64,000 nt of DNA from Candidatus Methanomethylicaceae archaeon. Lineage in GTDB: Archaea; Thermoproteota; Methanomethylicia; Methanomethylicales; Methanomethylicaceae. Location: positions 7,391 through 71,390 of the forward strand of contig JAOAJN010000007.1 of assembly GCA_026414165.1 (NCBI GenBank), in the 5' to 3' direction. Within the stretch, counting starts at the first letter, position 1. Each line of letters begins with the position of its first letter. The position numbers and the translations under genes were made by a program. This document shows, one piece after another, positions 2,992 through 52,118 of the stretch. Below the pieces are notes generated by a model. That model did no database searches and was not told the DNA's origin. It saw nothing but the letters and a program-made list of their open reading frames with translations.

Positions 2992-3415
2992 GCTTATAAG
3001 CACTTTGGTGAGTTAGAAAAAGGTTCAATTAAAAGTTTCAGTTCCATATGAAATTGCTGAAAAGTTAAGACAGTTTCTAAAGGAGAAGGGTTGCTTGGAA
3101 ACCAAGGCATAACTCTTTCAATAATCTCTTCAGAGGAGGGCGACGAGATTAGGAAAAATGGGAATGAAATGAGGGCGGAGGTTGCCCAAAAACTGTGGCG
3201 AGGGCGTTTATTAAGAATGTTCAAAACTTATGAGTGCTTATGGAAAACAAGGCCACGGTCATGAGGTTTTCCAGTATGCTGCAGAAAAATAGAATTTTGG
3301 AAATATTTGAAAATTAAGAGTTGCAAAAATATCTCAATATAACTGGGATTGCTGGAACAGTTGTCAATGGATGTGCGCTATAGAAAGCATGTTTTTGGAG
3401 AGTGCCTTTAGATTC

Positions 3416-3487
3416 TTAGATGTTGGTGTGGGCGTAGGTGCAGGTGCAGATGCAGGTGTAGGTTTAGATGTAAATTTAGATGTTGCA
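3416..3487. repeat. 12 consecutive degenerate hexamers (ttagat gttggt gtgggc gtaggt gcaggt gcagat gcaggt gtaggt ttagat gtaaat ttagat gttgca)
   Basis: Read directly from the sequence. The plus strand is nearly free of C here (one C in most units). It lies in the 580-bp non-coding spacer between the hydro-lyase beta gene and the AOR-HPS gene. Confidence 0.8.
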
Positions 3488-3573
3488 ATAGGGATTCGAG
3501 GAGATGAAAACCGGAATTTTGCGGCTTGGGGCAATATTGAAATGCAGGAAAAAGAGGGGTTATTGTTTCCTCG

Positions 3574-6072
3574 TTACGACTTTTGCTGGTTCCAAGTGGT
3601 CCTTATCAAGTTCACAAACCTTCTCGTTGCCTCTTCAGGATTTGCGGACTTCGTTATCGCGCCGCCTACTATCAGGATTTTTGCACCAGCATTCACCATC
3701 AGCGGGACTACTTCAAGCTTTATACCACCAGCCACCGCCACTGGTATTTTTACTGACTTAACCAAGTTCTCGACGAGGGCTATTTTTTGATCGATCTCGC
3801 GCTCCCTTGTCTGGGCGCTTATACCTACATGCATGCAGACTATGTCCACGCCCAGCTTCTCGACCTCCATAGCCCTGCTGATCGGGTCCTTCAAGTTCAT
3901 TAAATCCACCATCACCTTCACGCCGTACTTCCGAGCCGCTCCGACGGCATCCTTTATTGTGTAGTCGTCAGTTGCACCCATAACCGTAACAATGTCGGCG
4001 CCGTTCTCCACAGCCAACTCGGTCTCGAGCCATCCTGTGTCAAAAGTCTTCAAATCAGCTATTATAGTGGCGTTAGGGCAGATCCTGCGGAATTCCTTGA
4101 CCGCTCTTAGCCCCTCGGACTTTATCAGCGGAGTGCCAGCCTCAATTATGTCGGCTCCTCCGCGGTACGAGGCTTCTGCTATAGGTAGTGCATCCTTTAG
4201 GTATCGTTCATCGACGGCTACTTGGAGTTTAGGACCTTCGTAAAGTGGCTTCAGACCCAACTGTGACACCTTCTTATCCGTGGGTATTCCGTTATAGTCC
4301 CAACCTCTTACAGCATAATACTCATTTAATAACCTATCCATATCGACGGTCTCGCCCTTTGCTGGACCCTCTGGCATGGGCACTTCAAGTAAGCGCCTCG
4401 GGAGATAATCATCCTTCCTAGAGAAGCCCTCCCTGACGTTGAAGAGTCGCTCTAGATTATAGATCCTCTCGCCGATCTTGTAGAACTCCTCACGGTCGAC
4501 ATAGAAGCCCGTCGCGGTGGTCAGGAGGCGTGCGTAGAAGTCTGGCTCGAACAATAATGTGGAAAAAAGCGCCAAGGTCGTGTACTTGCATAAAACTAGA
4601 GAGTCAAGTACGGCGAATACATCCTGCATAACTTTTGTCAGGGCGGCTTTGTTATCGTAGGCGTTGGGGTTTAGGTACCTAGGAAGGCTCAGGATCTCGG
4701 GGGCTATCATAAAAGCCCTGAGGTGGCAGCCGCCCCTGTTTGATGTGGCATAGGCCAGAGCCATACCCTTAGCGCCCCTTGGGTCGTACGCAGGAAGCTC
4801 CAGCCCCTTCACATGCATGGCGTACTCCTCTCCGCCCAATTTGGCGGCAGCTCTCTTGGTCCCCTCTGCCAAGATGTCACCTATGCCCTGCCTGAAGGCA
4901 GTCATAGTAATCAGCTTCTGGAGAGCCTCGGTGTTGCCGAACTTTGGGGCAAAGCCTATATCATCGGACTTCACCTTGCTGTTCTCGAAGCATGCCATGA
5001 GATACCCTATAACCTGCCCCATGGATATGGTGTCTATACCGTAACGGTTGCACAGATCGTTCGCGTAAGCTATAGCCTCTATGTCGTTGATCCCGCAGTT
5101 AGGTCCCAAAGACCATATGGTCTCGTACTCTGGACCTTCGGATTCCACGATCTCGCCCGAAGGGAGCTTAACCTTGGTGACCCTCCCACACATTATTGGG
5201 CATGCAAAGCATCCCTTCTTGCCCTTAAGGATGGTCTTTGCCATATACTCGCCGCTCACCCTCTCAGCATCATCGAATACGCCGGTGCTGTAGTTCCTAA
5301 CGGGGAATATGCCAGCTTTGTTTATGATATGCACAAGCACTGCTGTGCCGTACCTGCCTAAGCCGTCCCCGGTGACCGGGTGACCCTTGAGGACCTCTAT
5401 GGAATGCCTTACCTCTTTCATAAAGGCGTACCGGTTGGCGAGTGGGATCTCGCCAGAGCCCTTCACCACAATTGCTTTCAGCTTCTTGGACCCCATTACG
5501 GCACCCACACCGCCCCTAGCGGCGGTCCTGTGCTTCTCGTTCATTATCGCCGCGATCTTTACGAGGCGTTCGCCGGCAGGTCCTATGCAGGCAACCCTCG
5601 CGAACTGGTCATTGACGATTTGCTTGAGTCGGGATTCGGTCTCGAAGACATCCAGCCCCCATAGATCAGAAGCGTCCCGAAGTTCTGCCTTGCCTTTCAT
5701 AATTGAAAGGTAAACAGGGGTCTCGCTGGCACCTTCGAATATTATGCCATCAAAACCCGACCTCTTCAGTTCTACGCCAAAATGACCACCGCTGTTGGCG
5801 TCGAATATAGTTCCGGTGGCGGGAGATTTCGTAGAGACAGAGTATCTTCCTGACGTGGGTGCCGCCGTACCCGTGAGTGGACCAGTCATGAAGATGAGTT
5901 TGTTGGCAGGACTCAACGGGTCTATCCCTACAGGAAGCTCATCGAAAAGGATCTTTGCTCCATAGCCCCTTCCGCCTATAAATGAGTATGCTATATCCAT
6001 ATCGAGATCTTCAACGGAGATCTCTCTGGACGATAGGTCTACTCTGAGTATTTTACCCATGTAGCCGCCCAT
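3574..6072 (-). CDS. AOR-family tungsto/molybdopterin aldehyde:ferredoxin oxidoreductase fused to a C-terminal 3-hexulose-6-phosphate synthase (HPS) domain
   Basis: 832 aa. The AOR part (about 4234..6072) has MGKILRVDLSSREISVEDL, the CxxCxxxC cluster motif CFACPIMC, and SNRGGCHLR. The HPS part (about 3577..4233) has LQVAVDE, IIEAGTPLIK, IADLKTFDTG, VTVMG and VAVAGGI. The frame is uninterrupted across the junction. Confidence 0.85.
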   Translation of the reverse strand: MGGYMGKILRVDLSSREISVEDLDMDIAYSFIGGRGYGAKILFDELPVGIDPLSPANKLIFMTGPLTGTAAPTSGRYSVSTKSPATGTIFDANSGGHFGVELKRSGFDGIIFEGASETPVYLSIMKGKAELRDASDLWGLDVFETESRLKQIVNDQFARVACIGPAGERLVKIAAIMNEKHRTAARGGVGAVMGSKKLKAIVVKGSGEIPLANRYAFMKEVRHSIEVLKGHPVTGDGLGRYGTAVLVHIINKAGIFPVRNYSTGVFDDAERVSGEYMAKTILKGKKGCFACPIMCGRVTKVKLPSGEIVESEGPEYETIWSLGPNCGINDIEAIAYANDLCNRYGIDTISMGQVIGYLMACFENSKVKSDDIGFAPKFGNTEALQKLITMTAFRQGIGDILAEGTKRAAAKLGGEEYAMHVKGLELPAYDPRGAKGMALAYATSNRGGCHLRAFMIAPEILSLPRYLNPNAYDNKAALTKVMQDVFAVLDSLVLCKYTTLALFSTLLFEPDFYARLLTTATGFYVDREEFYKIGERIYNLERLFNVREGFSRKDDYLPRRLLEVPMPEGPAKGETVDMDRLLNEYYAVRGWDYNGIPTDKKVSQLGLKPLYEGPKLQVAVDERYLKDALPIAEASYRGGADIIEAGTPLIKSEGLRAVKEFRRICPNATIIADLKTFDTGWLETELAVENGADIVTVMGATDDYTIKDAVGAARKYGVKVMVDLMNLKDPISRAMEVEKLGVDIVCMHVGISAQTREREIDQKIALVENLVKSVKIPVAVAGGIKLEVVPLMVNAGAKILIVGGAITKSANPEEATRRFVNLIRTTWNQQKS

Positions 6073-6220
6073 GAGGTTCCCTCTGCACTACTCGTAAAAT
6101 ACGAAGTATACTTATACTTGTCGAAATGTGCTTTATTGTTTAGTCTTATTTATAAGGTGCAAAATAAGAATAAGGGTAAATGAAAAGAGTGTAGTAAGAT
6201 AAAATTGTAGGTGAGGACTT

Positions 6221-6496
6221 TTGGCGATAAAGGTAGAGTTCTTCGCTACGCTGAGGGAGGTTCTGGGAACAAATTCCGTAGAACTAGACTATGCGGTCAC
6301 TGTGGGCGATTTGATTAATATGTTAATAGAGAGGTTCGGGCAGGCTTTCAGGGAGGCGGTGATGGAAGGTAGTAGGATCAAGGAGATGGTTAAGATTTTA
6401 GTAAATGGCAGGGACATAAGGGAGCGGGGAGGGCTCGAGACAGAATTAAGGGACGGAGACTGTGTCTCAATATTTCCGCCTGTTGCTGGCGGATGA
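6221..6496 (+). CDS. MoaD/ThiS-family ubiquitin-like sulfur carrier (C-terminal GG)
   Basis: 91 aa ending in FPPVAGG, with FFATLRE at the N-terminus. TTG start with a GGTGAGG Shine-Dalgarno-like element about 5 nt upstream. Divergent from the pterin-dependent AOR gene. Confidence 0.75.
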   Translation: MAIKVEFFATLREVLGTNSVELDYAVTVGDLINMLIERFGQAFREAVMEGSRIKEMVKILVNGRDIRERGGLETELRDGDCVSIFPPVAGG

Positions 6497-29688: not shown

Positions 29689-30732
29689 CTACAAGCTGAC
29701 AGAAAGAATCAAAGCGAGAACGCCAAGAGCCGAGAGACCCAAAGTTGCAGGATATATCTGTCGGAAGGTCAGTATTGGGGAGAATGCAACTAATATAGCC
29801 ATTGCTACGGGTAAGACAAGACTCAAAACCATGTTCAGTATGAGGCACAAGGGCATGAATGGATCAAATGGAATCCCAATAAATAGTGTGACAAATATGC
29901 TCGAGAGGGCGAATAATAGAAGGTTCCGCATCAGATAATAACCAGCTCTCAGTTTCGAGGCATACTCTAGGACGCCCCCCTCTATGACGTCAACCTTTGC
30001 TTTGAGAATATTGAATGGTCTTTCGTTTAGGAGCATGAGATAGCCCACAAAATAGACTACTGCTGCCAAAAAGCCAGGCACTGTGAGTAGAACTGGATTT
30101 GACGGTAGAGGTAAAGAGAACCAAGAGGAATTGAAGTAAACTGGATTCTGGACTCTTATCAGATCAGAGATCATACCACTTCTGGCAGCTACGAAAGGTA
30201 CTAAGAGGGCGATATAAAGGGGTAGCGAGCCAATTGCCATCATCTTTAGAGCTCTCTCGGCCGAGTGTTGTTCAACGAACTCCCTTATGACGCCCTTGAT
30301 CTTTGCTCCCTTGACAAGATCGTTTATGGGCATGGGCGTGGTAAGAATTGACTGGGATTGCGATCCCATGAGGACGTACAAGACCTCCTCCAACTTGAGA
30401 AAGCCAGCTAGACCAAGGATGCTGCCCCATCCCAAAACACCCCACCAGTATGGGGTGGAGAACAATAACAATAGGAGTACAATCGCCACTCCGAGCCAAA
30501 CCAAGGACTTGTAGAAGAAAGGCATCTGTGCGATGGGTTCCGCCTTCCCTTTGTACCAGAACTTCAGGACTGCCCACCAACCAGGAGTTAAGACTGGAGG
30601 ACCAATCCTCTGCTGAACTCTTGCCTGAAGTTTTCTCTCTATGCCAGGAAGTACAAGCGAGTAGAGGGTTGCAATTATAGCTGCCACTATTGAAGAAAGA
30701 ACAAGTCCAGCGATAAACAATATAGCATCCAT
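29689..30732 (-). CDS. NuoH/MbhM/HycD-like membrane subunit of a group 4 hydrogenase
   Basis: LPGIERKLQARVQQRIGPP at the N-terminus; polytopic; 347 aa. Confidence 0.8.
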   Translation of the reverse strand: MDAILFIAGLVLSSIVAAIIATLYSLVLPGIERKLQARVQQRIGPPVLTPGWWAVLKFWYKGKAEPIAQMPFFYKSLVWLGVAIVLLLLLFSTPYWWGVLGWGSILGLAGFLKLEEVLYVLMGSQSQSILTTPMPINDLVKGAKIKGVIREFVEQHSAERALKMMAIGSLPLYIALLVPFVAARSGMISDLIRVQNPVYFNSSWFSLPLPSNPVLLTVPGFLAAVVYFVGYLMLLNERPFNILKAKVDVIEGGVLEYASKLRAGYYLMRNLLLFALSSIFVTLFIGIPFDPFMPLCLILNMVLSLVLPVAMAILVAFSPILTFRQIYPATLGLSALGVLALILSVSL

Positions 30733-30733
30733 A

Positions 30734-31921
30734 CTATCTCCTCCATCCGTACTTTCTCACAACCTCAATCTCACTCATAATCCGCGTCTTGCCAGATTCA
30801 ATTATCTCGACGCGGTTGCAACAGGTTAGGCAGGGATCGCAGCTGGCTATTGTTAATACTGCGTCTGTAACGTGATCGCCTATGCATGCCTTTTCCATGG
30901 CAGCCAAGTTGGTTGGTGTGGGAGTGCGTATTTTATAACCCCTTATGAGTCCTTGCGAATCCAAACTGTAAGAATGCATAAGCTCTCCTCTGAAGGTCTC
31001 AAAATACATTGTAGTGTAGTCCATCTCACCTGGGATCCAATCCCTATTGACGATTGGTCCCTCGGGAAGGTTCTTCACTACTTGGCGTATAATCTTTAGA
31101 CTCTCAATCACCTCGAGGGCCCTTTGAACCACTCTCGCTTTGTTGTCTCCTTCTTTGAGAACAATTACATTGAAGTCAAACGGTTTGTATTCGTACATCA
31201 TTCTTCTGATATCATAATCCCAGCCCGAGGCCCTACCATTAGGTCCTGTAGCATGATATTTTATAGCGTCGTCTTTTGATAGGAGACCAACTCCAGCCAA
31301 CCTCGACATCACAAGTGGGTCGGCGAGAATCCTATCCACGTACTCTAAATATTTCTTCTCGAAGTCATCAAGCCTTTCTAGAATAACCCTCTTCAGAGAT
31401 TCAGTAAGATCCGACCTAGGTCTTATTCCACCAATCACTGGAACGGAAGGCATGACCCTGTTGCCGCCTATATAAGCCATAAGATCCATGAATACTTCCC
31501 TAAGGAGGAACGAGCGCATCGAGAAAGTCTCGTGCCCTAGAATCTCGAAGGCGTGCCCAAAGAATATCAGATGGCTCGCAATACGCTGAATCTCATTTAT
31601 CAGCACCCTGATGTAATTGGCTCTATCAGGAACCTTTATCTTAAGACCAGATTCGACTACGCGAACGGCGTTCCAAGCATGCACATTAGAGCATATTCCG
31701 CAGACCTTCTCAGCGATTAGTAGAGCCCGCTCTACTGGAAGACCTTCAAATAGCCTCTCGATCCCTCTGTGGGCCATATTTATTGTTAATTCACAGTCCT
31801 CAACGATCTCGTCATTTACAAAGAGTCTGATCCTGAATGGTTCGATCAGTGCAGGGTGAACTGGACCTAATGATAGTTCTTTCTCCACAACACTCTCTTT
31901 ATCTTTTGTTCTCTCGGTCAT
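30734..31921 (-). CDS. [NiFe] hydrogenase large subunit, group 4 (NuoD/MbhL/EchE-like)
   Basis: LGPVHPALIEPFRIRLFV, HRGIERL, N-terminal ligand pair in EKVCGICSNVH, and C-terminal pair in SCDPCLTCCNR. Start at the ATG at 31921 (TAAAATG junction with the small subunit). Confidence 0.85.
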   Translation of the reverse strand: MTERTKDKESVVEKELSLGPVHPALIEPFRIRLFVNDEIVEDCELTINMAHRGIERLFEGLPVERALLIAEKVCGICSNVHAWNAVRVVESGLKIKVPDRANYIRVLINEIQRIASHLIFFGHAFEILGHETFSMRSFLLREVFMDLMAYIGGNRVMPSVPVIGGIRPRSDLTESLKRVILERLDDFEKKYLEYVDRILADPLVMSRLAGVGLLSKDDAIKYHATGPNGRASGWDYDIRRMMYEYKPFDFNVIVLKEGDNKARVVQRALEVIESLKIIRQVVKNLPEGPIVNRDWIPGEMDYTTMYFETFRGELMHSYSLDSQGLIRGYKIRTPTPTNLAAMEKACIGDHVTDAVLTIASCDPCLTCCNRVEIIESGKTRIMSEIEVVRKYGWRR

Positions 31922-31922
31922 T

Positions 31923-32375
31923 TTAAGGTGCCTCCATGAGTTTTGGTACTCCCTTAACCGCCCCCGCGATGATATCTTCGGGTCTCGGGGCACAGCCAGG
32001 CACTTTTACATCCACTGGGATTACCTTTTCCACCGGACCTACCACCTCAGCATTTGCTCCGATGTCGCCAACCATATTTGTGAACACGTTGCCATTGACG
32101 GCGCAGGAACCTACTGCTAGAACCGCCTTAGGTTCCGGTATTAGTTCGTATAGTTTTTTGAGGGGTTCCACCATCTGCCATGGAACACATCCAGTCACGA
32201 TAAGTACGTCCGCCTCCCTAGGGTTCCATGTCAAAAGAATCCTGTACTGTTCCAAGTCGTATCTTGGAGAGAGAAGGGCGTTTAATATCTCTATGTCGCA
32301 GCCGTTACACCCTTCGGTGTAAACTAACATGGCATGTATGGCATTTTTTCTTGCAATTGCCTTCAAGCCCATCAC
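31923..32375 (-). CDS. [NiFe] hydrogenase small subunit, NuoB/MbhJ-like
   Basis: Four cluster Cys residues: GCNGCDIE, AVGSCAVNG, VPGCAPRPEDI. Confidence 0.85.
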   Translation of the reverse strand: MMGLKAIARKNAIHAMLVYTEGCNGCDIEILNALLSPRYDLEQYRILLTWNPREADVLIVTGCVPWQMVEPLKKLYELIPEPKAVLAVGSCAVNGNVFTNMVGDIGANAEVVGPVEKVIPVDVKVPGCAPRPEDIIAGAVKGVPKLMEAP

Positions 32376-32863
32376 TTCTTACCTCCTCTCAGAAATTCAA
32401 CGGTCTCTGGCGGTATCAACTTCTTAAGTTCCTCAATCTTCTCGGGAGGAGCCCTTATCGGTTTCTTAAGGATTTCCTGTAGGGTGAGTTTGGGGCTACC
32501 CACGTCCCTGGCATGAATTGGTGCCGCCTCCCCAAAGACTGAGTATATGGGGCAGAAATCATGACAATTTAGGCAAAATACACACTTCATGAGATCTATG
32601 CGGGGGACTTGTTCACGCATGTACCCCTCAGCAATCTCTACAGGTTTCTCGAGTTTCATCATAGTTATTGCCTGGGTGGGGCAGACTTTGGCACAGCCCC
32701 CGCAACCTATGCACATCTCGTCTAACACAGTATCCCAAGCAGGAACAGATAGTGTGAGGACCTTTTTACGTATCTCCAAGCTCGTCGCTCTGTCGGACCT
32801 CAAAACTACCCTAACAAAATTCCTGTAAGCTCCCTGGAGCATCAGTCTCAAGAAGGCGATCAT
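32372..32863 (-). CDS. 2x[4Fe-4S] NuoI/MbhN-like ferredoxin subunit
   Basis: CIGCGGCAKVCPTQAI and RIDLMKCVFCLNCHDFCPI. Confidence 0.7.
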   Translation of the reverse strand: MIAFLRLMLQGAYRNFVRVVLRSDRATSLEIRKKVLTLSVPAWDTVLDEMCIGCGGCAKVCPTQAITMMKLEKPVEIAEGYMREQVPRIDLMKCVFCLNCHDFCPIYSVFGEAAPIHARDVGSPKLTLQEILKKPIRAPPEKIEELKKLIPPETVEFLRGGKK

Positions 32864-33309
32864 GGTATCACCACCGCCTCACCAACATATCCAGCGACCC
32901 TTTTTGTGCTGTAAACCTTAACAACGCGGATGCAGTCCGTGGGGCATGTTGTGGCACAGGCACCACAACCTATGCATTTGGATTCATCAACATAAGCCAA
33001 TCCGTCCTTAAGGTATACGGCATGGTCACCTTTCAGCGTTATCTTGCAAGCATCAACACACAGACCGCAGCCGATGCATAGGTTTCTATTTATGTAGACA
33101 GACCATCGCAACAATTCCCTGTTTGGTAGGACATTCAAAATAGGTATGGCACCAACCGGGCAGTGAGAAGCGCAGAGCTCACATAGTATGCATTTTGAAA
33201 TCTCGACGACCGGTTTTTTCTCTACGATAGGGTTAAATGTTATTGCATTTGTAGGACAGACCTTAACACACGTCCCACACCTTATGCACAAGTCTGTTGG
33301 TTTGCTCAA
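32860..33309 (-). CDS. polyferredoxin, 4 predicted [4Fe-4S] clusters
   Basis: CIRCGTCVKVCP, CILCELCASHCP, CIGCGLCVDAC, CIGCGACATTCP. Confidence 0.8.
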   Translation of the reverse strand: MSKPTDLCIRCGTCVKVCPTNAITFNPIVEKKPVVEISKCILCELCASHCPVGAIPILNVLPNRELLRWSVYINRNLCIGCGLCVDACKITLKGDHAVYLKDGLAYVDESKCIGCGACATTCPTDCIRVVKVYSTKRVAGYVGEAVVIP

Positions 33310-33944
33310 AGGATATTACCTCCCCAACTTACACTTTTAATAGAAAGAGCCCCCACGGGGCAAGACTTTATGCAGCGACCGCACATGACACAGTACCCAG
33401 CAGGGTATCGGTCTTTAAGATACATCGTCTGTGGCGGACATACGCGTACGCATTCCCCGCAGAGAGTACAGAGTTCGGGGTTCAATTTGATCCTATTCAT
33501 CTCAAACTTCAGTGCGCCGTTCGGACACACCCTCGCGCATAGTGAGCAGAGAGAGCAGTTAATTATTGTTGGGCGGGCATCGCCCTTCTTAATCTTTAGT
33601 TTGCCCTCGTACAACTGTATAGCTCCGACCGGGCATTTCTCATAACACTCCATACACATTACGCATGTGACCTTTATTATCCTTTCAGCGTACGACTGTG
33701 TGTTCAAGTAAAGCTTTCCGGCTTCCTCAGGTTTGATCTTCCCCTCATAAGAATCGATGGCCTTAACAGGGCACACCTCGGCGCATAGGTTGCAATGTGT
33801 GCAGAGACCTCTCTCTTCAATGGTGAACTTTATCGCATCCGTGGGGCAAATGTTCCTGCATCTACCACAGAGTATGCATTTCGACATGTCCCGGAAGATC
33901 TTTCTCTTTGAGACTTGAACTGTCTTTGCAACTTGAACGCTCAT
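33306..33944 (-). CDS. polyferredoxin, 6 predicted [4Fe-4S] clusters
   Basis: CILCGRCRNICP, CTHCNLCAEVCP, CVMCMECYEKCP, CSLCSLCARVCP, CTLCGECVRVCP, CVMCGRCIKSCP. Confidence 0.8.
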   Translation of the reverse strand: MSVQVAKTVQVSKRKIFRDMSKCILCGRCRNICPTDAIKFTIEERGLCTHCNLCAEVCPVKAIDSYEGKIKPEEAGKLYLNTQSYAERIIKVTCVMCMECYEKCPVGAIQLYEGKLKIKKGDARPTIINCSLCSLCARVCPNGALKFEMNRIKLNPELCTLCGECVRVCPPQTMYLKDRYPAGYCVMCGRCIKSCPVGALSIKSVSWGGNIL

Positions 33945-34399
33945 TTTGTAACCACTGCCTCCACTTTTTTGTCCTTAAGTATCTCTTTGAGCCTCTCGGG
34001 AGTGGCGATCTCCAGAACAACTGAGTAGTCGATCGGACGAGTAATGTATCTGCCAAGATCGAATCGGGCGTTTTTGGGGCAGACCTTAACGCATAATCCG
34101 CACCTTACACAGATCCCCCTAACCCTTTCCTTCTTCAGATTATCATCAAACACGATCTTAGCAAATCCGAAAGGGCAGTGCTTGACGCAAAGACCGCAGA
34201 GTGTGCATCGGGCTCTGTCCACATACCAACCTCCAAACCGATTCTTCCTTATGGCTTGGGTCGGACAGACGCGTGCGCACTCCCCACAAGTCGTACAGCT
34301 AAATGGAATTCCGTCGGGATGCTTGATGCAGTCTGTAGGGCATGCCTCCCAGCATTTTCCGCATTTGTCGCACTCAGATGTTGTGAGGTACATCATCAC
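33941..34399 (-). CDS. polyferredoxin, 4 predicted [4Fe-4S] clusters
   Basis: CDKCGKCWEACP, CTTCGECARVCP, CTLCGLCVKHCP, CVRCGLCVKVCP. Confidence 0.8.
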   Translation of the reverse strand: MMMYLTTSECDKCGKCWEACPTDCIKHPDGIPFSCTTCGECARVCPTQAIRKNRFGGWYVDRARCTLCGLCVKHCPFGFAKIVFDDNLKKERVRGICVRCGLCVKVCPKNARFDLGRYITRPIDYSVVLEIATPERLKEILKDKKVEAVVTK

Positions 34400-34656
34400 T
34401 CACCCTTCAGAGCCTTACCTATTAGGAGCCCAATAGTAGCACCAATCAGAGGGGTGGCGAACCCCAGACCAGGCATTATGTAGCCCCCGTATATGGAGTA
34501 TGAAAACATAAATACTCCAAAGAGCAGGGCACCGACAATACTGAATGAGATTACCAATACTGTTGTCCCCTTGGAGATCTTTCCTGAGAGCTGTGTTCCA
34601 AAGAGAATGCCCAATATTATCGAAATTATAAACGGGGTTATCTCTCCAAGCATCAT
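34396..34656 (-). CDS. small membrane protein (about 3 TM) of the hydrogenase operon
   Basis: 86 aa from the internal ATG (MMLGEITPFIISIILGILFG...). Has a 4-nt overlap with the first polyferredoxin. Confidence 0.5.
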   Translation of the reverse strand: MMLGEITPFIISIILGILFGTQLSGKISKGTTVLVISFSIVGALLFGVFMFSYSIYGGYIMPGLGFATPLIGATIGLLIGKALKGE

Positions 34657-34657
34657 T

Positions 34658-35509
34658 TTACTTTCCTCCTTTCTCTTGGTCTTCCGGAGGCTCGGACCAG
34701 CCGTAGAGGAAGGCAAAATAGATTAGCCCAATAGCGCCTACAACATTGAATGCTTCTGCAATATTTATCAAGGGTATTATGCCAGGGGTGGAGTAAAATA
34801 CTCCCTCTTGGAGGTATAATGAGAGCCTGAACGGATCGCCGAATATGCTGTGGAGGGTTGGTGAGACAAGACTCCAGATATCCGCACCCACGTTATATTG
34901 CCAATATCCCGAAGTTAGAAATCCTGGTAGACCTAAAAGGGTGTATCCCCCTAGCCCGACAGCACCTATGCCGATAAGAAAGCGCTTGCCAAATTTTATC
35001 GGGTTATCCTTTCCGTAAAATATGGCAGCCAGTAAGTAAGCAGAAGTCATTATAACTCCGCACTGGAAGCCTCCTCCTCCAGATGTAGAGGATGCTGTGA
35101 CTACCATAATGCCATATGATAGCAAGAGTATCGCAGCTGGAAGACCAAGGTACTTCAAGATAACTGTCAAGGACTCGGTCCGGTACTCTAAAGGCGGAGA
35201 GGTTGCTGGAGCCTCCTCCGAATAATGTTTCATTTGAACCACCCCTCTGCCTATAACAAGGGCAGACGCCACAGCACCCACATAAATAACAGCAGTCTCT
35301 ATCAGTGTATCAAAACCACGCCAATCGTAAACCCAAGTCGCTATATTATTTGGAGCGACTAAATAAGCCAGGATATTGTAGATCCTGCTTATTCCGGGGC
35401 TCACATTCCCAGCTAGTTTTTCCAATGATGACATTAACCCTACGCAAATTATGAGTAGAGCGATTACGGCAATTATTCCCCTTTTACCCCTAAGTTCTGA
35501 CGGATCCAT
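34658..35509 (-). CDS. MnhB/MrpB-domain membrane protein (MbhE/F-like)
   Basis: WVYDWRGFDTLIETAVIYVGAVAS resembles the MnhB RxFDTLGE motif; polytopic. Confidence 0.65.
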   Translation of the reverse strand: MDPSELRGKRGIIAVIALLIICVGLMSSLEKLAGNVSPGISRIYNILAYLVAPNNIATWVYDWRGFDTLIETAVIYVGAVASALVIGRGVVQMKHYSEEAPATSPPLEYRTESLTVILKYLGLPAAILLLSYGIMVVTASSTSGGGGFQCGVIMTSAYLLAAIFYGKDNPIKFGKRFLIGIGAVGLGGYTLLGLPGFLTSGYWQYNVGADIWSLVSPTLHSIFGDPFRLSLYLQEGVFYSTPGIIPLINIAEAFNVVGAIGLIYFAFLYGWSEPPEDQEKGGK

Positions 35510-35512
35510 TTA

Positions 35513-35839
35513 TCATCCCCCCCATAAGGTTACAGCTATTATAATTGCAAAGTAAATTACAACCCAGTAGAGGACTCTGTTGAGATCGTTGCTGTTTTCT
35601 TTTTCCAAGGTGACTATCAGAGGAGCAAAATAAAGTGTTCCCGCGATTGCCGCGATAAGCAAGACCATGCCCAAAGGTATAGAGAATATCCTAAAGAAGG
35701 AGGCAAGAATTAGCGCAAACACTAAAGACTGGAGCTCTCCTGTCATATATCCTGTCATCATGTTAGTATAGCCGTTACCCTCTACGAAAGAGCTTATCCA
35801 TTTCTTAACCTTATCAAACAGAGTGTCTATAGATACCAT
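35513..35839 (-). CDS. small membrane protein of the hydrogenase operon (MbhI-like position)
   Basis: 108 aa from the internal ATG at 35839 (MVSIDTLFDKVKK...), with 3 hydrophobic segments. Confidence 0.5.
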   Translation of the reverse strand: MVSIDTLFDKVKKWISSFVEGNGYTNMMTGYMTGELQSLVFALILASFFRIFSIPLGMVLLIAAIAGTLYFAPLIVTLEKENSNDLNRVLYWVVIYFAIIIAVTLWGG

Positions 35840-37335
35840 GGTATACTCACCGCCTGTGCAACGGGTGTTATAAAACTCACAACAATATTGGGATAAACCC
35901 CAATGATCAGTGTGAGGGCAACAAAGACCCATAGCCCAATATAGAGGGATCTTGGAACCTTAACCTCCGCAACGGGTTCTGAAGTTTCCGGAGGCTTTAA
36001 GAACAATCTGTAAACTGCCCTGAAGAGAGCTATGAATGTTGTTACTGAAACCATCAGGATTACAGCGGCCACCTCCGGGAGCCCAGCCTTAAGAGAAGCT
36101 TGGATCAGTATAAGTTCGCTTTGGAAGCCGTTGAATGGAGGTATTCCGGAGGCCGCCATTGTGCCTAGAATAACAGCCATTCCAAGCCAAGGTGCCCTTT
36201 TGGCTAAACCCAAAGAATTCCTTGTTGAGGTCTTCCCTCCAAAGTAGTAAAGTGCCTCACAACAAAGTAGCAACACGGTCATGTAAATCACATCATTAAC
36301 AGCCTGAAATATGCCCCCAACAAGTCCTTCGGTTGTACCCAGAGAGATCCCAACTGTAACAAGTCCGCTATGGCTAACTATGAGATATGCCAAGATCCAT
36401 CTGAAGTCGGTCTGGATTAGAGCCATCACAACGCCCAACATCATAGTTATGATGCTTATTGCTAACATTACTTCCCTTACAAAAGGTAGCATGCCGAAGA
36501 TCTGTAGCATTACAATACCAATGGCGACAAGCATCAGTTTTGACTGTGTCTGAAGCATTGCTGTGCCGTGCGGAAAGGATGCCCCGTATACCTCTGATTT
36601 AAGCGGGTGAATTGGGGCAAGTCCGCCGGCATATATCCAAGAGAGCACAAAGAATGCAAAGGCTACGTAAAGTATGATGGACATCTCGCCAAGGTTGACG
36701 GACTGAAGATATCTTATGGCATCTGAGATGTTCGAATATCCAGTAAGACCCAATATTAGAGCTAGTGCGATAGCGAGACCTGCGCCGCTGAGGGCGGAGA
36801 AGAAGGTATACTTTAGGGCAGCCTTATGACTCACACTTGTCCCAGATCCGACTACAACACCTGCTACAACCAAACTACCAATTTCCACAGCGATCCATAG
36901 ATGGTAGAGGTCATTAACCATGATAATTATAGCTGCGGACGCAAATAGCAGGAAGATCATGCTCATGTATGGACCCTGGCGTTTTGTTAGACCGCTGGAG
37001 GCAACAGCAACCACAAATATCAAGATCAGTGACATCACGAATATCATTACTTGCTGGAGGGGACCGAAATAGAATTCAAGTGCCAACCGCCAAGCTGGAA
37101 AACCAGGGTCGAATGTAAAAGTCAGAGTCTCTGGGCGCAAGGCGGGTTGTCCAGTAAACCAGTGGTATCCATAGGAGGACAATGATGCTATTAGTGCAAG
37201 GCATACGGCAGAAACGATCGATATGATCTTTATGAGGCGCGACCTATTGTAAATGAAGTTAACCACAACCGCAACTATAATAGGGATCACTACAAGTAAC
37301 GGAATTGACCAAAGGTTTGATGGATATGCACTCAT
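35827..37335 (-). CDS. MrpD/NuoL-N-like antiporter subunit (MbhH-like)
   Basis: 502 aa with about 14 TM segments. The composition is typical of proton-pumping antiporter-like subunits. Located between the MrpC-like gene and small TM genes. Confidence 0.85.
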   Translation of the reverse strand: MSAYPSNLWSIPLLVVIPIIVAVVVNFIYNRSRLIKIISIVSAVCLALIASLSSYGYHWFTGQPALRPETLTFTFDPGFPAWRLALEFYFGPLQQVMIFVMSLILIFVVAVASSGLTKRQGPYMSMIFLLFASAAIIIMVNDLYHLWIAVEIGSLVVAGVVVGSGTSVSHKAALKYTFFSALSGAGLAIALALILGLTGYSNISDAIRYLQSVNLGEMSIILYVAFAFFVLSWIYAGGLAPIHPLKSEVYGASFPHGTAMLQTQSKLMLVAIGIVMLQIFGMLPFVREVMLAISIITMMLGVVMALIQTDFRWILAYLIVSHSGLVTVGISLGTTEGLVGGIFQAVNDVIYMTVLLLCCEALYYFGGKTSTRNSLGLAKRAPWLGMAVILGTMAASGIPPFNGFQSELILIQASLKAGLPEVAAVILMVSVTTFIALFRAVYRLFLKPPETSEPVAEVKVPRSLYIGLWVFVALTLIIGVYPNIVVSFITPVAQAVSIPWYL

Positions 37336-37706
37336 CGTCGCTCACCCTTTAGTACCTTAGAAGCTTTAAGTGTGCCATACCGCCTGTAGAGCATTATTGC
37401 CAAAGCAACCAGTATTGCGGTGGTGCTCACACCTATGACGATGTTAGTTAAAACGATTCCGACTGGAAAGACAAGAGCTGCCCTCGCCGCAAATTCTGAA
37501 ACCGACATTCCAGGGATCAGTATGGGGACGATGCCACCCTCAACATAGCCCAAAGCTACCAATAGTAAATTCACACCATCAGAAAGCAATGTAAAAGATA
37601 TTATTTTTTTGATCAGGTTATCCAAGAAAAGCATGCCTGCAATACCAATAACTACAAGTGCAGCAGCCGCAATGAAGCCCAATAGTTGGATTGTGACTTC
37701 TATCAA
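37332..37706 (-). CDS. MrpC/NuoK-like membrane subunit (MbhG-like)
   Basis: 124 aa, 3 TM; IISFTLLSDGVNLLLVALGY. Confidence 0.75.
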   Translation of the reverse strand: MIEVTIQLLGFIAAAALVVIGIAGMLFLDNLIKKIISFTLLSDGVNLLLVALGYVEGGIVPILIPGMSVSEFAARAALVFPVGIVLTNIVIGVSTTAILVALAIMLYRRYGTLKASKVLKGERR

Positions 37707-37966
37707 TCTTCTTCAGTCCTCCTTGTTTTGAATATTCCCAGAATGATGATTCCTGGCAGGAGCACGGTGCCAACAATTGCCTGGGTCAAACCAAGATCTG
37801 GTGCTAAGAGAGCTTGAAAGAAGAATGCTAGAGCTATGCTCTCTGCGCCTGATATGAAGGCGGCCCTTAGAAGATCTTTTTGAAGTAGAGCTGCTACTGC
37901 GCCCACAGTTATTGCAACCACCATAACATAAGCCATCACAATAAAACTTGAAGACAGTTCGATCAT
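37703..37966 (-). CDS. MbhD-like / DUF4040 (MrpB N-terminal-like) membrane subunit
   Basis: 87 aa; LLQKDLLRAAFISGAESIALAFFFQALLAPDLGLTQAIVG. Confidence 0.6.
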   Translation of the reverse strand: MIELSSSFIVMAYVMVVAITVGAVAALLQKDLLRAAFISGAESIALAFFFQALLAPDLGLTQAIVGTVLLPGIIILGIFKTRRTEED

Positions 37967-38445
37967 TTTTCCAACCTCCTCTGATAGCTATAATAATAGG
38001 CATTTGCAAGAGCGTTTCCGCAGAACGGTATGAGGACGAAAAAGAAGAAGCCAACGGCAACTAAATCAAGCCTAAATATCAACAATCCTCCGAATATCAT
38101 GACCAAAGAGGCCACGGTATCTATGATGCCAGTTATGTGGTTCCTTGCATAGAAGATGTTTGGACCATATTCGTCTCCAAATCTGAATAGGCCTATGGCA
38201 GCACCTATCATAGGCACGACTCCAGCGAACATTATTCCGCCGGCACCAATCTTGCCAACAACACTAACCGCTGTATCAAATGGGACCCCGTTGAAAACCA
38301 GAATGATTGCCAACACTACAAAAACTATTATAAGCGATGGTATGAGTTTGTTTGGGTCTATTACGAAAGTGCCCTTCTTTATATTCCATGCCACGAATGC
38401 AATTATAGCGAGCCCATATAGTATCACAAAGATCTCGTCGATCAT
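37963..38445 (-). CDS. MrpG/MnhG-like membrane subunit with N-terminal extension
   Basis: GAAIGLFRFGDEYGPNIFYARNHITGIIDT resembles the MnhG GLLRFPD..R.H motif. At 160 aa it is longer than the usual ~110-120 aa. Confidence 0.6.
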   Translation of the reverse strand: MIDEIFVILYGLAIIAFVAWNIKKGTFVIDPNKLIPSLIIVFVVLAIILVFNGVPFDTAVSVVGKIGAGGIMFAGVVPMIGAAIGLFRFGDEYGPNIFYARNHITGIIDTVASLVMIFGGLLIFRLDLVAVGFFFFVLIPFCGNALANAYYYSYQRRLEK

Positions 38446-38756
38446 TCGCCCTCCTCCATCCTGAATAATCTTGCAAAGATTATCGTGCCCACGGCGCCCA
38501 AAACAAGAAGTGCGATCGCAGTATCTCTAGCGAACTCAACCTCAAATATGATCTGAATGATGTATAGGCTGACGCCTGCAGCCGTTGTGAGGGCGCTTAC
38601 GCCCATCAGAGAGGTTACCGCCTCACCTTTTAATGCGAGCCTTAGCGCGCCCAGACCAGCTATCGCGACGGCCACCATAAAGGTAAATGCGCCCCAAAAG
38701 AACACCGAGTCGGCTAGTGATGTCAATGACGCGACATCCATCATTTTTCTAACCAC
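38442..38756 (-). CDS. MrpF/MnhF-like membrane subunit
   Basis: 104 aa, 3 TM. Sits between the MrpE-like and MrpG-like genes. Confidence 0.6.
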   Translation of the reverse strand: MVRKMMDVASLTSLADSVFFWGAFTFMVAVAIAGLGALRLALKGEAVTSLMGVSALTTAAGVSLYIIQIIFEVEFARDTAIALLVLGAVGTIIFARLFRMEEGE

Positions 38757-39046
38757 CTCTCAACATGAGGTTCTAATGGAATTATCTCTCCCCGGGTTCT
38801 TGGGTTAATAGCGCCCACGTAAAGCCGTTTTATAGGTACATCTACTTCGATAGTTACAGTGCCAGGAGTATATGTAATGCTGTTTGCGAGCATTGTTTGC
38901 GAGATAGGTTTTGTAAGGACAGAGTCAATGGGAATAATAACCGGGTCGATATCCCCATTAAAACACCTTTTTGTGACGTCTATAATGGATGCCATTATTT
39001 CCCTTATCAAACGTAACCAAAAACGAACTCCCCACATAAAAGCCAA
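38741..39046 (-). CDS. MrpE/MnhE-like subunit (MbhA-like)
   Basis: MLANSITYTPGTVTIEVD matches the MnhE ANSITLTPGT motif. Confidence 0.65.
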   Translation of the reverse strand: MAFMWGVRFWLRLIREIMASIIDVTKRCFNGDIDPVIIPIDSVLTKPISQTMLANSITYTPGTVTIEVDVPIKRLYVGAINPRTRGEIIPLEPHVERWLEK

Positions 39047-39337: not shown

Positions 39338-39439
39338 TTTTGCACGTCCCTGTGATAACCAAGTTTTATAGCAGAACGTATTAATAATTTTTTGCATAAC
39401 CAATGCAATGATGATCGAGAGGGGATACAAACGAGGATT

Positions 39440-40717
39440 GTGGCAGATCTGCACATCCACAGCCCATATAGCAGGGCAACAAGTAAGGACATGACGTTGA
39501 AAAACTTGGACAGGGGCGCCTCCATAAAGGGAATAAAAATTCTTGGAACTGGAGACTTCACCCATCCCAAGTGGAGGGAGGCGCTAAAAAACCTGAGAGA
39601 AGAGGATGGGCTATACAGAATCGAGGATAGTAATACAAGATTTATAGTGACGGGTGAAGTCTGCACAAACTTTAAATTTGGCGGAAAGACGCGAAGGATC
39701 CATCATCTGATATTGTTACCCTCGCTTGAGGTCGCTGAGCAGATCTGCGAGAGACTTTCGAGGTATGGAGACTTGGAAGCGGATGGTAGACCCAATCTAT
39801 CTATGACGGGGGCGCAGTTGGTCGAGGAGATTGTAGAATTTGGAGAAGAGTGCCTCGTAATACCAGCACATATCTGGACGCCTTGGTTCTCCCTCTTTGG
39901 AGATAGGGGAGGGGTAGACAGGATCGAGGAGTGCTACGAGGATCAGACGCCACATATTTATGCGTTAGAGACAGGGCTGTCTTCAGATCCGCCCATGAAC
40001 TGGAGGGTGAGCGCGCTTGACTCCTTCACTCTAGTGTCTAATAGTGACAGCCACAGCCCCAGTCCTTGGAGGTTAGGTCGTGAGGCAAACATAATAGAGG
40101 TGCAAAAGCTCAGTTATTCATATGTCGTAAGGGCCATAATGGAGGGAAAAGATAGGATAACCACCATAGAAGTGGATCCAGCTTATGGCAAGTATCACTG
40201 GACAGGTCATAGAATTTGCAATATTGCACTACCTCCCTATGAGGCTATCAAGTTGAAGGGCATATGTCCTGTATGCGGGAAAAAAATGACAAAGGGTGTC
40301 GCGGAGAGGGTCGAAGAGCTTGCCGACAGACCCGAAGGGGAGGGGCCGAAGAAGAAGCAGAATTTTTTGAGGGTTCTGCCCCTCAGCGATATAATAGCCA
40401 CTTATTTGGGTAAAGATCCATTCTCTGCAGAAGTTCAAAGGGTTTACTGGGATATCTTAAAGAAATTCAGTAATGAGTTGCAAGTTCTATTAGAGACGCC
40501 AATAGAGGAGCTTGAAAAAGTCTGTGGAATAGATCTGGCGAAATTGTTAATCATGAATAGAGAAAATCGTATTAACATCATACCAGGCTATGATGGAGTT
40601 TACGGAAAGATCGAAATTAATGGTGATATGGAAAGAGTGAGTTTTTTAAGGAGGCCAAAGAACCTAGAAGATTATATCAATAATCGGAAGGTGGATATTG
40701 ATGGGCAAGGCTCCTGA
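39440..40717 (+). CDS. PHP-domain endonuclease Q (EndoQ)-like protein
   Basis: [20 protein letters not shown]...[15 protein letters not shown] and zinc finger [13 protein letters not shown] prefer the GTG at 39440, which follows GAGG and gives ~425 aa. The ORF track starts at the TTG at 39392. Confidence 0.7.
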
Positions 40718-52061: not shown

Positions 52062-52118
52062 CCTCGCCTAGGTTAAGTATTTATTAGGAGTTTAAATGTT
52101 TTAACTAGTTGGTTGAAG

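Follow-up and report, generated by a model that had tools for sequence, protein, structure and literature searches.

[quoted passage not shown] The reverse ribulose monophosphate (RuMP) pathway releases one formaldehyde per pentose. To our knowledge, where that formaldehyde goes is largely unaddressed outside the methanogens with tetrahydromethanopterin (H4MPT). Those are thought to capture it via a Fae-HPS fusion (PMC5241800), and most archaea are described as making their pentoses by the reverse pathway, with formaldehyde released (PMC3189178). The gene considered here lies in a 64-kb stretch of DNA from a member of the Methanomethylicia, which we refer to as the window. It raises the questions of whether the fusion is real, whether each half is the enzyme it appears to be, and what the two would do together.

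The fusion gene and its junction

The complete AOR-HPS fusion gene occupies 3574..6072 on the minus strand, begins with ATG and encodes 832 amino acids (832 codons plus the stop at 3574-3576). A preliminary description of the sequence had reported one uninterrupted frame containing both enzymes, and the ORF listing has it exactly so. In the product, Pfam finds AFOR_N, AFOR_C and OMPdecase; the identities of both enzymes are borne out by Pfam, NCBIfam and PDB matches. A translation check located every motif quoted in that description at its coordinates (CFACPIMC, SNRGGCH, LQVAVD, IIEAGTPLIK, DLKTFD and HVGISAQ). Homologues and an AlphaFold2 model agree with this definition of the gene, and the model is confident throughout (pLDDT 94.4, pTM 0.92).

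The AOR homology ends at GLKPLY (4240-4257), and the HPS homology begins with KLQVAVD, from 4230 downward. The boundary proposed earlier, at about 4233/4234, was thus correct within one codon. Between the ends of the PDB alignments for AOR and HPS there are just three residues, E-G-P (4231..4239, minus strand), of which the proline, P614, is conserved in 68 of the 72 fusions compared. There is no low-confidence linker in the AlphaFold2 model; the mean pLDDT is 92 over the two 10-residue blocks, 601-620, that include it. Judged by the alignments and the model, the two domains are tightly coupled through a short, rigid linker of three residues with a conserved proline.

Full-length homologues of the fusion protein range from 46 to 97% identity, and the architecture appears in about 80 protein clusters (90%-identity clusters). 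Carriers include Methanomethylicia, the lineage of the window, as well as Nezhaarchaeales, Bathyarchaeia, Asgard archaea and a Thermoplasmata-like clade. A single frame runs across the junction in at least 19 independent GTDB species-representative genomes, spanning Methanomethylicia, Bathyarchaeia and Asgard archaea. Since it is read through in all of these genomes and clusters, a frameshift or a chimeric assembly is excluded as far as sequence comparison allows, and on this basis we regard the fusion as confirmed to be real and conserved. The notion that an assembly or sequencing error removed a stop or shifted the frame, joining two adjacent genes, has a negligible probability: two NCBI records (P0121 and P0122) do annotate the HPS part as a separate protein of 231-234 amino acids, but the DNA behind P0121 (L009 4444-6951) is a single unbroken 835-codon ORF, the junction is unbroken in the genomes and clusters just described, and a linker of three residues leaves no space for a stop and restart. 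A split of the fusion in close relatives, as these "stand-alone" HPS records from Verstraetearchaeota (85-87% identity) might suggest, is likewise rejected for P0121, which appears separate because its annotated start is an internal GTG within the 835-codon frame.

The oxidoreductase and synthase domains

The N-terminal half belongs to the AOR family. AFOR_N (PF02730; residues 6-205, 5458..6057, minus strand) scores 282 bits against a cutoff of 29.8 and covers profile positions 1-198 of 199; domains 2 and 3, as AFOR_C (PF01314; residues 223-607, 4252..5406, minus strand), score 501 bits against a cutoff of 27 and cover positions 5-385 of 385. Pyrococcus furiosus AOR (1aor), a stand-alone enzyme of about 605 amino acids, aligns with it end to end (residues 2-611 of the fusion to 2-605, 630 bits). 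The CxxCxxxC cluster motif is CFACPIMC (residues 288-295, 5188..5211, minus strand), and its three cysteines are present in 72/72 fusions. Together with C495, C288, C291 and C295 are the predicted [4Fe-4S] ligands and align with the four cluster cysteines of 1aor. All four are invariant among the 72 fusions, as are E315/E317, H450 and D490/S491. E317 (in PEYE) and H450 (in GGCH) fall on the same motifs in 1aor, and correspond to what we take to be Glu313 and His448 of P. furiosus AOR, the active-site pair next to the metal. Members of the family bind a bis-pterin W (or Mo) cofactor and oxidise aldehydes with ferredoxin, as the AOR half may do.

The preliminary description had labelled this half a formaldehyde:ferredoxin oxidoreductase (FOR), which is the wrong subfamily. 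P. furiosus FOR (1b25) is a superfamily relative, and the reaction that we propose below is the one for which it is named, but it is clearly more distant, at 373 bits, against 630 for 1aor and 518-623 for other AORs. The FOR-type assignment is rejected by these PDB scores, and the protein lies outside the FOR clade. The AOR clade is known for broad aldehyde specificity. Since the oxidoreductase half is of this type, its homology does not imply specificity for formaldehyde.

Within the AOR family, the fused proteins stand apart. About 3,600 clusters at 50% identity match at E <= 1e-30, and among the 150 with the best scores only about four are fused. A neighbour-joining tree built from just the AOR domain places every fused protein apart from the 36 unfused AORs nearest to them. 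A column comparison of fused and unfused sequences finds seven signature residues common to the fused proteins and a six-residue insertion, FSTLLF in the window protein (residues 503-508, 4549..4566, minus strand), located directly after the fourth cluster cysteine. The nearest unfused AORs and 1aor show a gap opposite it; from 1aor the fused group differs by the insertion, the signature residues and the C-terminal HPS. By these comparisons and its spread among lineages, the fusion is an old and distinct subfamily.

The C-terminal half is an HPS domain (residues 615-832, 3577..4230, minus strand). OMPdecase of Pfam matches residues 614-819 with 116 bits, and TIGR03128 (RuMP_HxlA) matches residues 616-821 over model positions 1-203 of 205 with 204.3 bits, a narrow margin over its cutoff of 200. 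The best PDB matches, 9lj9_B (213 bits) and 3ajx (135 bits), are both HPS. Aligned to the HPS structures, the domain has the catalytic set of the OMPDC suprafamily: the Mg-binding Glu (E644), the Asp-x-Lys-x-x-Asp motif DLKTFD (residues 673-678, 4039..4056, minus strand; D673, K675 and D678) and the strand-6 His (H748). These residues are invariant in 72/72 fusions, along with Q617, D621, D723, A781-G782-G783 and G803. Both active sites of the fusion look catalytically intact and are under selection.

Around the strand-6 His, the sequence HVGISAQ (residues 748-754, 3811..3831, minus strand) had been suspected of being atypical. The His is invariant and Ile751 is a position of specificity between HPS and 3-keto-L-gulonate-6-phosphate decarboxylase (KGPDC). 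The Asp of His-x-Gly-x-Asp, present in solved HPS and KGPDC sequences, is Ser752 in the window protein. Among the 72 fusions this position is a Ser/Asp polymorphism (37 Ser, 35 Asp). We know of no catalytic role for it, and therefore read Ser752 as lineage variation.

Could the C-terminal domain be another OMPDC-suprafamily enzyme, KGPDC-like or a novel aldolase, releasing or using a different aldehyde that the AOR domain handles? The four-bit margin over the TIGR03128 cutoff and the serine in place of the Asp would allow it, but HPS entries make up all of the best matches to families and structures, the Ser/Asp site varies inside one orthologous family, and KGPDC models reach 105 against a cutoff of 250. 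In addition, D723, I751 and A781 stand where the KGPDC variant chain 1xbx is mutated, and carry its residues; the domain scores higher with that variant (83.4 bits) than with wild-type 1kv8 (77.0 bits). We presume the 1xbx changes to be the published HPS-enhancing E112D/R139V/T169A from the Gerlt laboratory. A cutoff-passing 6-phospho-3-hexuloisomerase (PHI) also clusters with the fusion in two of the loci examined (L087 and L090, described below). Accordingly, we hold a non-HPS identity to be very improbable.

Some relatives are longer, at about 991-1014 amino acids. They are not AOR-HPS-PHI triple fusions, a possibility that we rejected because the additional stretch is a further HPS-like domain, in degenerate form, and no SIS domain is present. 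The losses in the two HPS-like domains are complementary. In the variants of about 991 amino acids, the first domain retains D-x-K-x-x-D, with QVAxD, the His and the phosphate loop all lost, while the second has lost only the third Asp. In the OMPDC suprafamily, that Asp comes from the partner subunit. Taken together, each chain would then have one composite active site, preserving the logic of the HPS dimer.

Neighbouring genes and other HPS fusions

Upstream of the fusion is a divergent intergenic region (6073..6220) that is AT-rich and carries TATA-like runs, TTATAAATAA and TATAAGTATA, with GAGG 8-11 nt before an ATG; we read these as putative promoter-like elements between the fusion and the next gene. 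That gene (6221..6496, plus strand), transcribed divergently from the fusion, encodes a small sulfur-carrier protein of 91 amino acids with a C-terminal GG. It had been called a divergent MoaD-like gene, but its sequence is that of a standard archaeal MoaD/SAMP1-family member (TIGR01687, 93.3 bits, cutoff 49.5). A MoaD-family gene is a conserved neighbour in four lineages, with ThiS-family neighbours of the fusion in L001, L002/L003, L014 and L089. As a conserved divergent neighbour, it is a circumstantial pointer to a pterin cofactor in the AOR half. A group-4 [NiFe] hydrogenase/Mrp-type cluster is present at 29689-39046, 23.6 kb from the fusion. The preliminary description had connected the two; the cluster is where it was said to be, but its link to the fusion is one of proximity. 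An Rfam scan of the window gave no RNA family match.

The search for pathway partners gave a mixed picture. Within the 64-kb window, no PHI, Fae, formate dehydrogenase or pentose-phosphate genes were found. None of the best 120 of 5,487 matches in a PHI profile search traced to fusion-bearing long contigs, Methanomethylicia included. A tblastn search of the examined loci and the window with a PHI fragment and canonical PHIs gave matches in L022, L023, L087 and L090 only. In L087, a PHI gene (TIGR03127, 184.6 against a cutoff of 160) is clustered with the fusion and reads in the same direction, and the same cluster is found in L090. In two Asgard genomes (L022 and L023), tandem PHI-like genes adjoin the fusion (143 and 131 bits, under the cutoff of 160), and one of the two also has a phosphofructokinase nearby. 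A PHI gene is thus less than 3 kb from the fusion in two lineage groups. One Bathyarchaeia contig has phosphofructokinase and PGI/PMI genes near the fusion. Most contexts examined (the window, L001-L006, L088, L091 and L092) have no RuMP neighbour. Since PHI lies beside the fusion in two other lineage groups, the fusion can be tied to the RuMP pathway, as the preliminary description had supposed.

Three other fusions of HPS are known, and the window polypeptide is none of them; a Pfam scan finds no Fae, SIS/PHI or RraA domain in it. The bifunctional NCBIfam models match through the HPS part only and score far under their cutoffs (160 against 274, 198 against 500 and 241 against 593). In Fae-HPS of methanogens and Archaeoglobi (NF009833), HPS is also joined to a formaldehyde-removing enzyme; this fusion is interpreted in PMC5241800 as recovering the formaldehyde of the reverse RuMP pathway. 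There, Fae is N-terminal and condenses formaldehyde with H4MPT, involving no redox and requiring the H4MPT pathway, whereas the window fusion has a pterin/[4Fe-4S] partner of 610 residues whose products would be formate and reduced ferredoxin. HPS-PHI of Thermococcales (NF041755; PDB 9lj9) contains the closest solved HPS (213 bits, roughly 58% identical by alignment count) and has the pathway role proposed here, pentose synthesis (PMC3189178). In that protein, HPS is N-terminal, and the SIS-domain isomerase joined to it catalyses the step before. In the window fusion, by contrast, HPS forms the C-terminal part and is paired with an enzyme for the by-product; wherever PHI is found beside AOR-HPS, it is a separate gene. 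Finally, the archaeal HPS-MenG/RraA-like fusion (NF005442) has an HPS part about 52% identical to that of the window, and a RraA/MenG-like partner of unknown role according to PMC5241800. The preliminary description correctly named the first two of these fusions but left out the third.

Proposed function and its alternatives

We think that the fusion is probably, if far from certainly, a bifunctional enzyme of pentose synthesis by the reverse RuMP pathway that converts formaldehyde to formate and reduces ferredoxin. A separate PHI would make D-arabino-3-hexulose-6-phosphate from fructose-6-phosphate, and the C-terminal HPS would split this into ribulose-5-phosphate and formaldehyde. Formaldehyde would next be oxidised to formate by the AOR-type tungsto/molybdopterin domain at the N-terminus, with two electrons leaving via the [4Fe-4S] cluster of that domain to ferredoxin. 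Oxidation would clear a toxic product and pull an otherwise unfavourable cleavage, and substrate may be channelled between the HPS and AOR active sites. The reduced ferredoxin and formate may be used by the cell, for example by a membrane-bound hydrogenase or in formate-dependent purine synthesis. That the AOR domain acts on formaldehyde, and does so oxidatively, is what we infer; sequence alone leaves the direction of catalysis unfixed. The narrow passing of TIGR03128, the broad aldehyde specificity of the AOR clade, the lack of PHI, Fae, formate dehydrogenase and pentose-phosphate genes in the 64-kb window and the scarcity of RuMP neighbours in the contexts examined sit less comfortably with this proposal.

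Run in the opposite direction, the same protein would assimilate formate. AOR-family enzymes reduce carboxylic acids with low-potential donors, and both reactions are reversible in principle. The AOR domain would reduce formate to formaldehyde with reduced ferredoxin, and HPS would condense it with ribulose-5-phosphate, the exergonic condensation pulling the unfavourable reduction so that free formaldehyde never builds up. The short rigid linker and the confident single-body model suit channelling either way, the phosphofructokinase and PHI neighbours suit hexose-phosphate formation as much as cleavage, and a ferredoxin-linked group-4 hydrogenase is in the window. A route from formate through formaldehyde into RuMP has already been hypothesised for a crenarchaeon, with no formate-reducing enzyme identified (PMC7143981). 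Assimilation would need regeneration of ribulose-5-phosphate by transketolase/transaldolase or an equivalent, but none is present in the window or beside the fusion. Nor is a formate transporter or formate-related gene linked to it, and the established role of archaeal HPS/PHI is the reverse RuMP pathway for pentoses (PMC3189178). We therefore rate this direction as unlikely. If true, formate would enter sugar phosphates through a single protein, a natural formate reductase driven by ferredoxin and linked directly to the making of a carbon-carbon bond, which would be of biotechnological interest. The sequence from formate to formaldehyde to sugar phosphate has so far been engineered by synthetic biology.

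There is a similarly small chance that the domains work independently, as an ordinary HPS and a general oxidoreductase acting on aldehydes from amino acids or other sources. Their fusion would then serve co-expression, stoichiometry or shared dimerisation, with no hand-over of formaldehyde. The affinity of the AOR half to the broad-specificity clade and not to FOR fits this, as does the absence of RuMP neighbours from most genomic contexts. It is harder to reconcile with the fused AOR domains being a subfamily of their own, marked by signature residues and by an insertion beside a cluster cysteine, with a linker held constant at about three residues and a conserved proline, and with retention of the fusion in at least three groups of phylum level. 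Moreover, the described fusions with Fae and PHI pair HPS with partners that use its substrate or product.

Returning to formaldehyde oxidation in pentose synthesis, a cited survey reports H4MPT/Fae in most Bathyarchaeia orders. Since some Bathyarchaeia carry the fusion, it may not simply replace Fae.

As to novelty, the preliminary description did not recall this architecture as described. No description of an AOR-HPS fusion was found in the full-text literature, in a coverage lying mostly outside subscription journals, but the architecture is already common in sequence databases under generic names. It is thus common and not characterised. The fusion would be a conserved and seemingly undescribed means of removing formaldehyde where it arises, or possibly of producing it where it is used. 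The conserved pairing of HPS with an aldehyde oxidoreductase linked to ferredoxin gives a specific prediction for the fate of formaldehyde, one that is open to testing in culture, as the Methanosuratincola group, recently brought into cultivation, belongs to this lineage. If it is true, formaldehyde would be detoxified, the cleavage would be pulled thermodynamically, and two low-potential electrons and formate would be recovered. It would also provide a physiological substrate for one clade of the large AOR family, most of whose members are of unknown function.

Domain composition and continuity of the fusion gene

The minus-strand frame at 3574–6072 runs for 832 codons from an ATG start without interruption. 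[quoted passage not shown] Pfam places AFOR_N at residues 6–205, AFOR_C at 223–607 and OMPdecase at 614–819. In the minus-strand translation, the AOR homology ends at GLKPLY (4240–4257), a three-residue linker E-G-P follows (4231–4239), and HPS starts with KLQVAVD from 4230 downward. NCBIfam assigns the C-terminal part to HPS: the equivalog-domain model TIGR03128 scores 204.3 bits over residues 616–821 against a curated cutoff of 200, and the models for 3-keto-L-gulonate-6-P decarboxylase (KGPDC) and OMP decarboxylase stay far under their own cutoffs. Among solved structures, the best matches to the C-terminal 226 residues are HPS (9lj9_B, 213 bits; 3ajx, 135 bits). P. furiosus AOR (1aor, 630 bits) aligns with the N-terminal 612 residues from one end to the other, and formaldehyde:ferredoxin oxidoreductase (FOR; 1b25, 373 bits) aligns much more poorly. 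This places the oxidoreductase half outside the FOR subfamily. By all the sequence features that could be tested, the protein is a member of both the AOR and the HPS families.

The exact sequence of the window protein is in no database record; full-length homologues are plentiful. About 80 clusters at 90% identity contain proteins of 806–860 aa with all three Pfam domains, at 46–97% identity, and their source names include Methanomethylicaceae (97%), Nezhaarchaeales, Thermoprotei, Thermoplasmata and Hodarchaeota. When an alignment of the junction (A1, residues 520–700) was scanned against one genome per GTDB species, the entire junction was found in a single frame in at least 19 species genomes. 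Among the matches listed, these include Methanomethylicota/Methanosuratincola, Thermoprotei, Bathyarchaeia/Hecatellales, Hodarchaeota and Promethearchaeota. Since the junction is continuous in that many species genomes and in the ~80 clusters, comparison excludes, as far as it is able to, that the fusion in the window is a product of misassembly or of a frameshift, and we regard the chance that it is an artefact as negligible.

For three related proteins (P0121, P0122 and P0126), the HPS part is recorded as a separate "DUF561 domain-containing protein", of 231–234 aa in the NCBI records of the first two. A split gene was considered for P0121 and rejected. The DNA behind it (locus L009, 4444–6951 of JAJHRG010000001.1) is a single open frame of 835 codons, the "separate" protein comes from an internal GTG start, and the split is thus an annotation artefact. 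Counts of domain architectures that draw on annotations will undercount the fusion.

Catalytic residues, subfamily and junction

Conservation was read from 72 aligned sequences, the window protein and 71 other full-length fusions. The AOR half is invariant at the [4Fe-4S] cysteines C288, C291, C295 and C495, the PEYE glutamates, the GGCH histidine and D490-S491; E317 (PEYE) and H450 (GGCH) align with the same motifs in 1aor. The HPS half is invariant at Q617, D621, E644, D673-x-K675-x-x-D678, D723, H748, Q754, A781-G782-G783 and G803. The motif MHVGISAQ, flagged earlier as possibly atypical, is not so. Its His is kept throughout, and the position after Gly-Ile is Ser in 37 of the 72 and Asp in 35; therefore, the Ser is a lineage polymorphism. 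D723, I751 and A781 occupy three positions of the HPS domain that we take to be those separating HPS from KGPDC. The chain 1xbx, presumably the published HPS-enhancing KGPDC variant E112D/R139V/T169A, carries D, V and A there and scores 83.4 bits, against 77.0 for wild-type KGPDC. That the OMPDC-fold domain has some activity other than HPS is, beside these residues and the model scores, quite improbable.

The fusion relatives of ~991–1014 aa (P0059, P0063, P0065 and P0069; locus L006, 4569–7544) were considered as fusions to 6-phospho-3-hexuloisomerase (PHI), and this was rejected: each contains a tandem pair of HPS-like domains whose defects complement one another. In the first, D-x-K-x-x-D is intact (as ADYKTMDTG) but QVAxD, the His and the phosphate-binding loop at the C-terminus are gone; in the second, the third Asp alone is missing (KTLRNG, KTLSCG). 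In the OMPDC suprafamily, the third Asp of D-x-K-x-x-D enters the active site of the partner subunit. If that role is right, the simplest reading is that each long variant would be a pseudo-dimer within one chain, its two domains building a single composite active site, and the complementary losses, so read, would be independent evidence of selection on HPS catalysis in the fusion family.

In a neighbour-joining tree of the AOR domain alone, a single branch divides all of the fused proteins from the 36 nearest unfused AORs (591–629 aa); three seeming exceptions are truncated fragments. Common to the fused proteins are seven signature residues (N213, R240, K252, Y466, T519, Y524 and D526) and a six-residue insertion, FSTLLF (503–508), shortly after the fourth cluster cysteine, which is missing in the unfused relatives and in 1aor. 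A library clustered at 50% identity yields ~3,600 AOR-family matches at E ≤ 1e-30, and among the 150 representatives with the highest scores only about four cover both halves. As judged from sequence, the fusion family is compact.

Pro614 of the linker is present in 68 of the 72 fusions. An AlphaFold2 model from 63 family members is confident as a single body (mean pLDDT 94.4, pTM 0.92), linker included (mean pLDDT 92 over the two 10-residue blocks that contain it, 601–620), a result in favour of a fixed geometry between the AOR and HPS modules. Two independent activities, fused for the sake of co-expression, would be a rival explanation of the gene; next to the short conserved linker and the shared insertion, we think it unlikely.

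Gene neighbourhoods

In the window, the fusion gene stands alone and is convergent with the downstream fumarase subunit genes. The ~350 bp between its 3' end and the fumarase beta-subunit gene (3225–3573) are AT-rich (GC ~0.39) and contain no convincing gene and no Rfam match. Divergent from the fusion is a 91-aa MoaD/SAMP1-family gene (6221–6496; TIGR01687, 93 bits). It is a conserved neighbour of the fusion in two Methanomethylicia loci in full synteny with the window (L002, L003), a Nezhaarchaeales locus (L001) and two Thermoprotei contigs (L014, L089). Its presence is consistent with a pterin-dependent enzyme and proves nothing more.

Also on the minus strand, an A-type ATP synthase operon (22.2–29.1 kb, from 22209) directly adjoins a group-4 [NiFe] hydrogenase cluster with Mrp-antiporter-type subunits and polyferredoxins (29.7–39.0 kb, to 39046). 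The maturation genes hypA and hypE lie at 52113–52475 and 52987–54009. The window also encodes PRPP synthase, housekeeping genes and a plus-strand ORF of 441 aa (39392–40717) with a PHP-like metal-binding start, a Cys-rich end and no Pfam match at E ≤ 1e-5.

The search for phi, fae and pentose-phosphate genes proposed in the preliminary description found no PHI, formaldehyde-activating enzyme (Fae) or pentose-phosphate enzyme within the 64-kb window; PHI does lie beside the fusion in other lineages. Through these neighbours, a link to the ribulose monophosphate (RuMP) pathway can be seen. Two loci whose fusion proteins are 88% identical to each other (L087, 10001–17804; L090, 8001–15890) share a co-directional cluster in the order AOR-HPS, DUF402, an AP_endonuc_2-type protein (565–604 aa, a xylose-isomerase-like TIM barrel) and PHI, that of L087 scoring above the NCBIfam cutoff (TIGR03127, 184.6 against 160). 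The cluster also has a 741–749-aa protein without a Pfam match, and L090 has a second PHI-like SIS gene (4253–4888). On one Hodarchaeota and one Promethearchaeota contig, a tandem double-SIS protein adjoins the fusion; its best family is PHI, at 143 and 131 bits, below the cutoff. On the Hodarchaeota contig, the neighbourhood further includes a PfkA phosphofructokinase and, directly downstream of the fusion gene, a 221-aa HPS-like paralogue (L022, 3955–4620). The paralogue is most similar to the HPS portion of the Fae-HPS model (147 bits, under the cutoff) and has altered motifs, ADLKTLKFD and AASV replacing AGG. On one Bathyarchaeia contig, PFK and PGI/PMI are no more than 5 kb from the fusion, and on a second, pyruvate phosphate dikinase follows immediately downstream. 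The contexts at L004–L006, L088, L091 and L092 are uninformative on the RuMP link. Two unrelated contigs have purine genes near the fusion, one with SAICAR synthetase directly upstream (L024 3033–3725) and one with a PurT-like ATP-grasp gene downstream at a distance of 4 kb (L004 16627–17997). These genes are weakly suggestive of formate for purine C1 units and may be there by chance.

Proposed reaction and relation to known HPS fusions

Most archaea have no oxidative pentose phosphate pathway and make ribulose-5-P from fructose-6-P by PHI and HPS in reverse, releasing formaldehyde, and Fae-HPS fusions have been interpreted as a means of recovering it (PMC3189178, PMC5241800). The best-supported reading of AOR-HPS, and in our judgement a fairly probable one, is that the HPS domain would cleave hexulose-6-P and release formaldehyde, which the AOR domain would oxidise to formate with reduction of ferredoxin. 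Formaldehyde may be channelled between the two, formate and ferredoxin may both be used downstream, and the hydrogenase 23.6 kb away is one possible user of the ferredoxin. By our own estimate, the formate/formaldehyde couple has a potential lower than is typical of ferredoxins; should this hold, an otherwise unfavourable cleavage would be pulled forward by the oxidation. Membership of this AOR clade speaks neither for nor against formaldehyde as substrate. The interpretation first offered is partly supported: the fusion and the identity of both domains stand, the RuMP link has backing from other lineages, and the oxidoreductase is not of FOR type. Run in reverse, the same enzyme would be a formate-fixing module. 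A formate-to-formaldehyde-to-RuMP route without a known reductase has been hypothesised for Desulfurococcus (PMC7143981); we give operation in this direction a low probability.

The HPS fusions described are Fae-HPS, HPS-PHI and HPS-MenG/RraA. Pfam finds no Fae, PHI or MenG/RraA partner domain in the window protein, and the bifunctional NCBIfam models match it solely through HPS, far below their cutoffs. AOR-HPS would share with Fae-HPS the purpose of removing the HPS by-product, but by redox chemistry, whereas Fae-HPS uses cofactor condensation; HPS-PHI has the opposite domain order. It had been allowed that the fusion might prove both common and already characterised. It is common, and the full-text literature searched, which most subscription journals lie outside, holds no description of the architecture. 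Its database names are generic ("3-hexulose-6-phosphate synthase", "aldehyde ferredoxin oxidoreductase", "orotidine 5'-phosphate decarboxylase"). AOR-HPS is a conserved, widespread and apparently uncharacterised bifunctional enzyme. If formaldehyde oxidation is the true reading, a substrate would be assigned to one AOR clade. There would be a separate upside if the fusion runs as a formate reductase. AOR-HPS would offer a testable answer to the fate of reverse-RuMP formaldehyde in archaea without Fae, or besides it.
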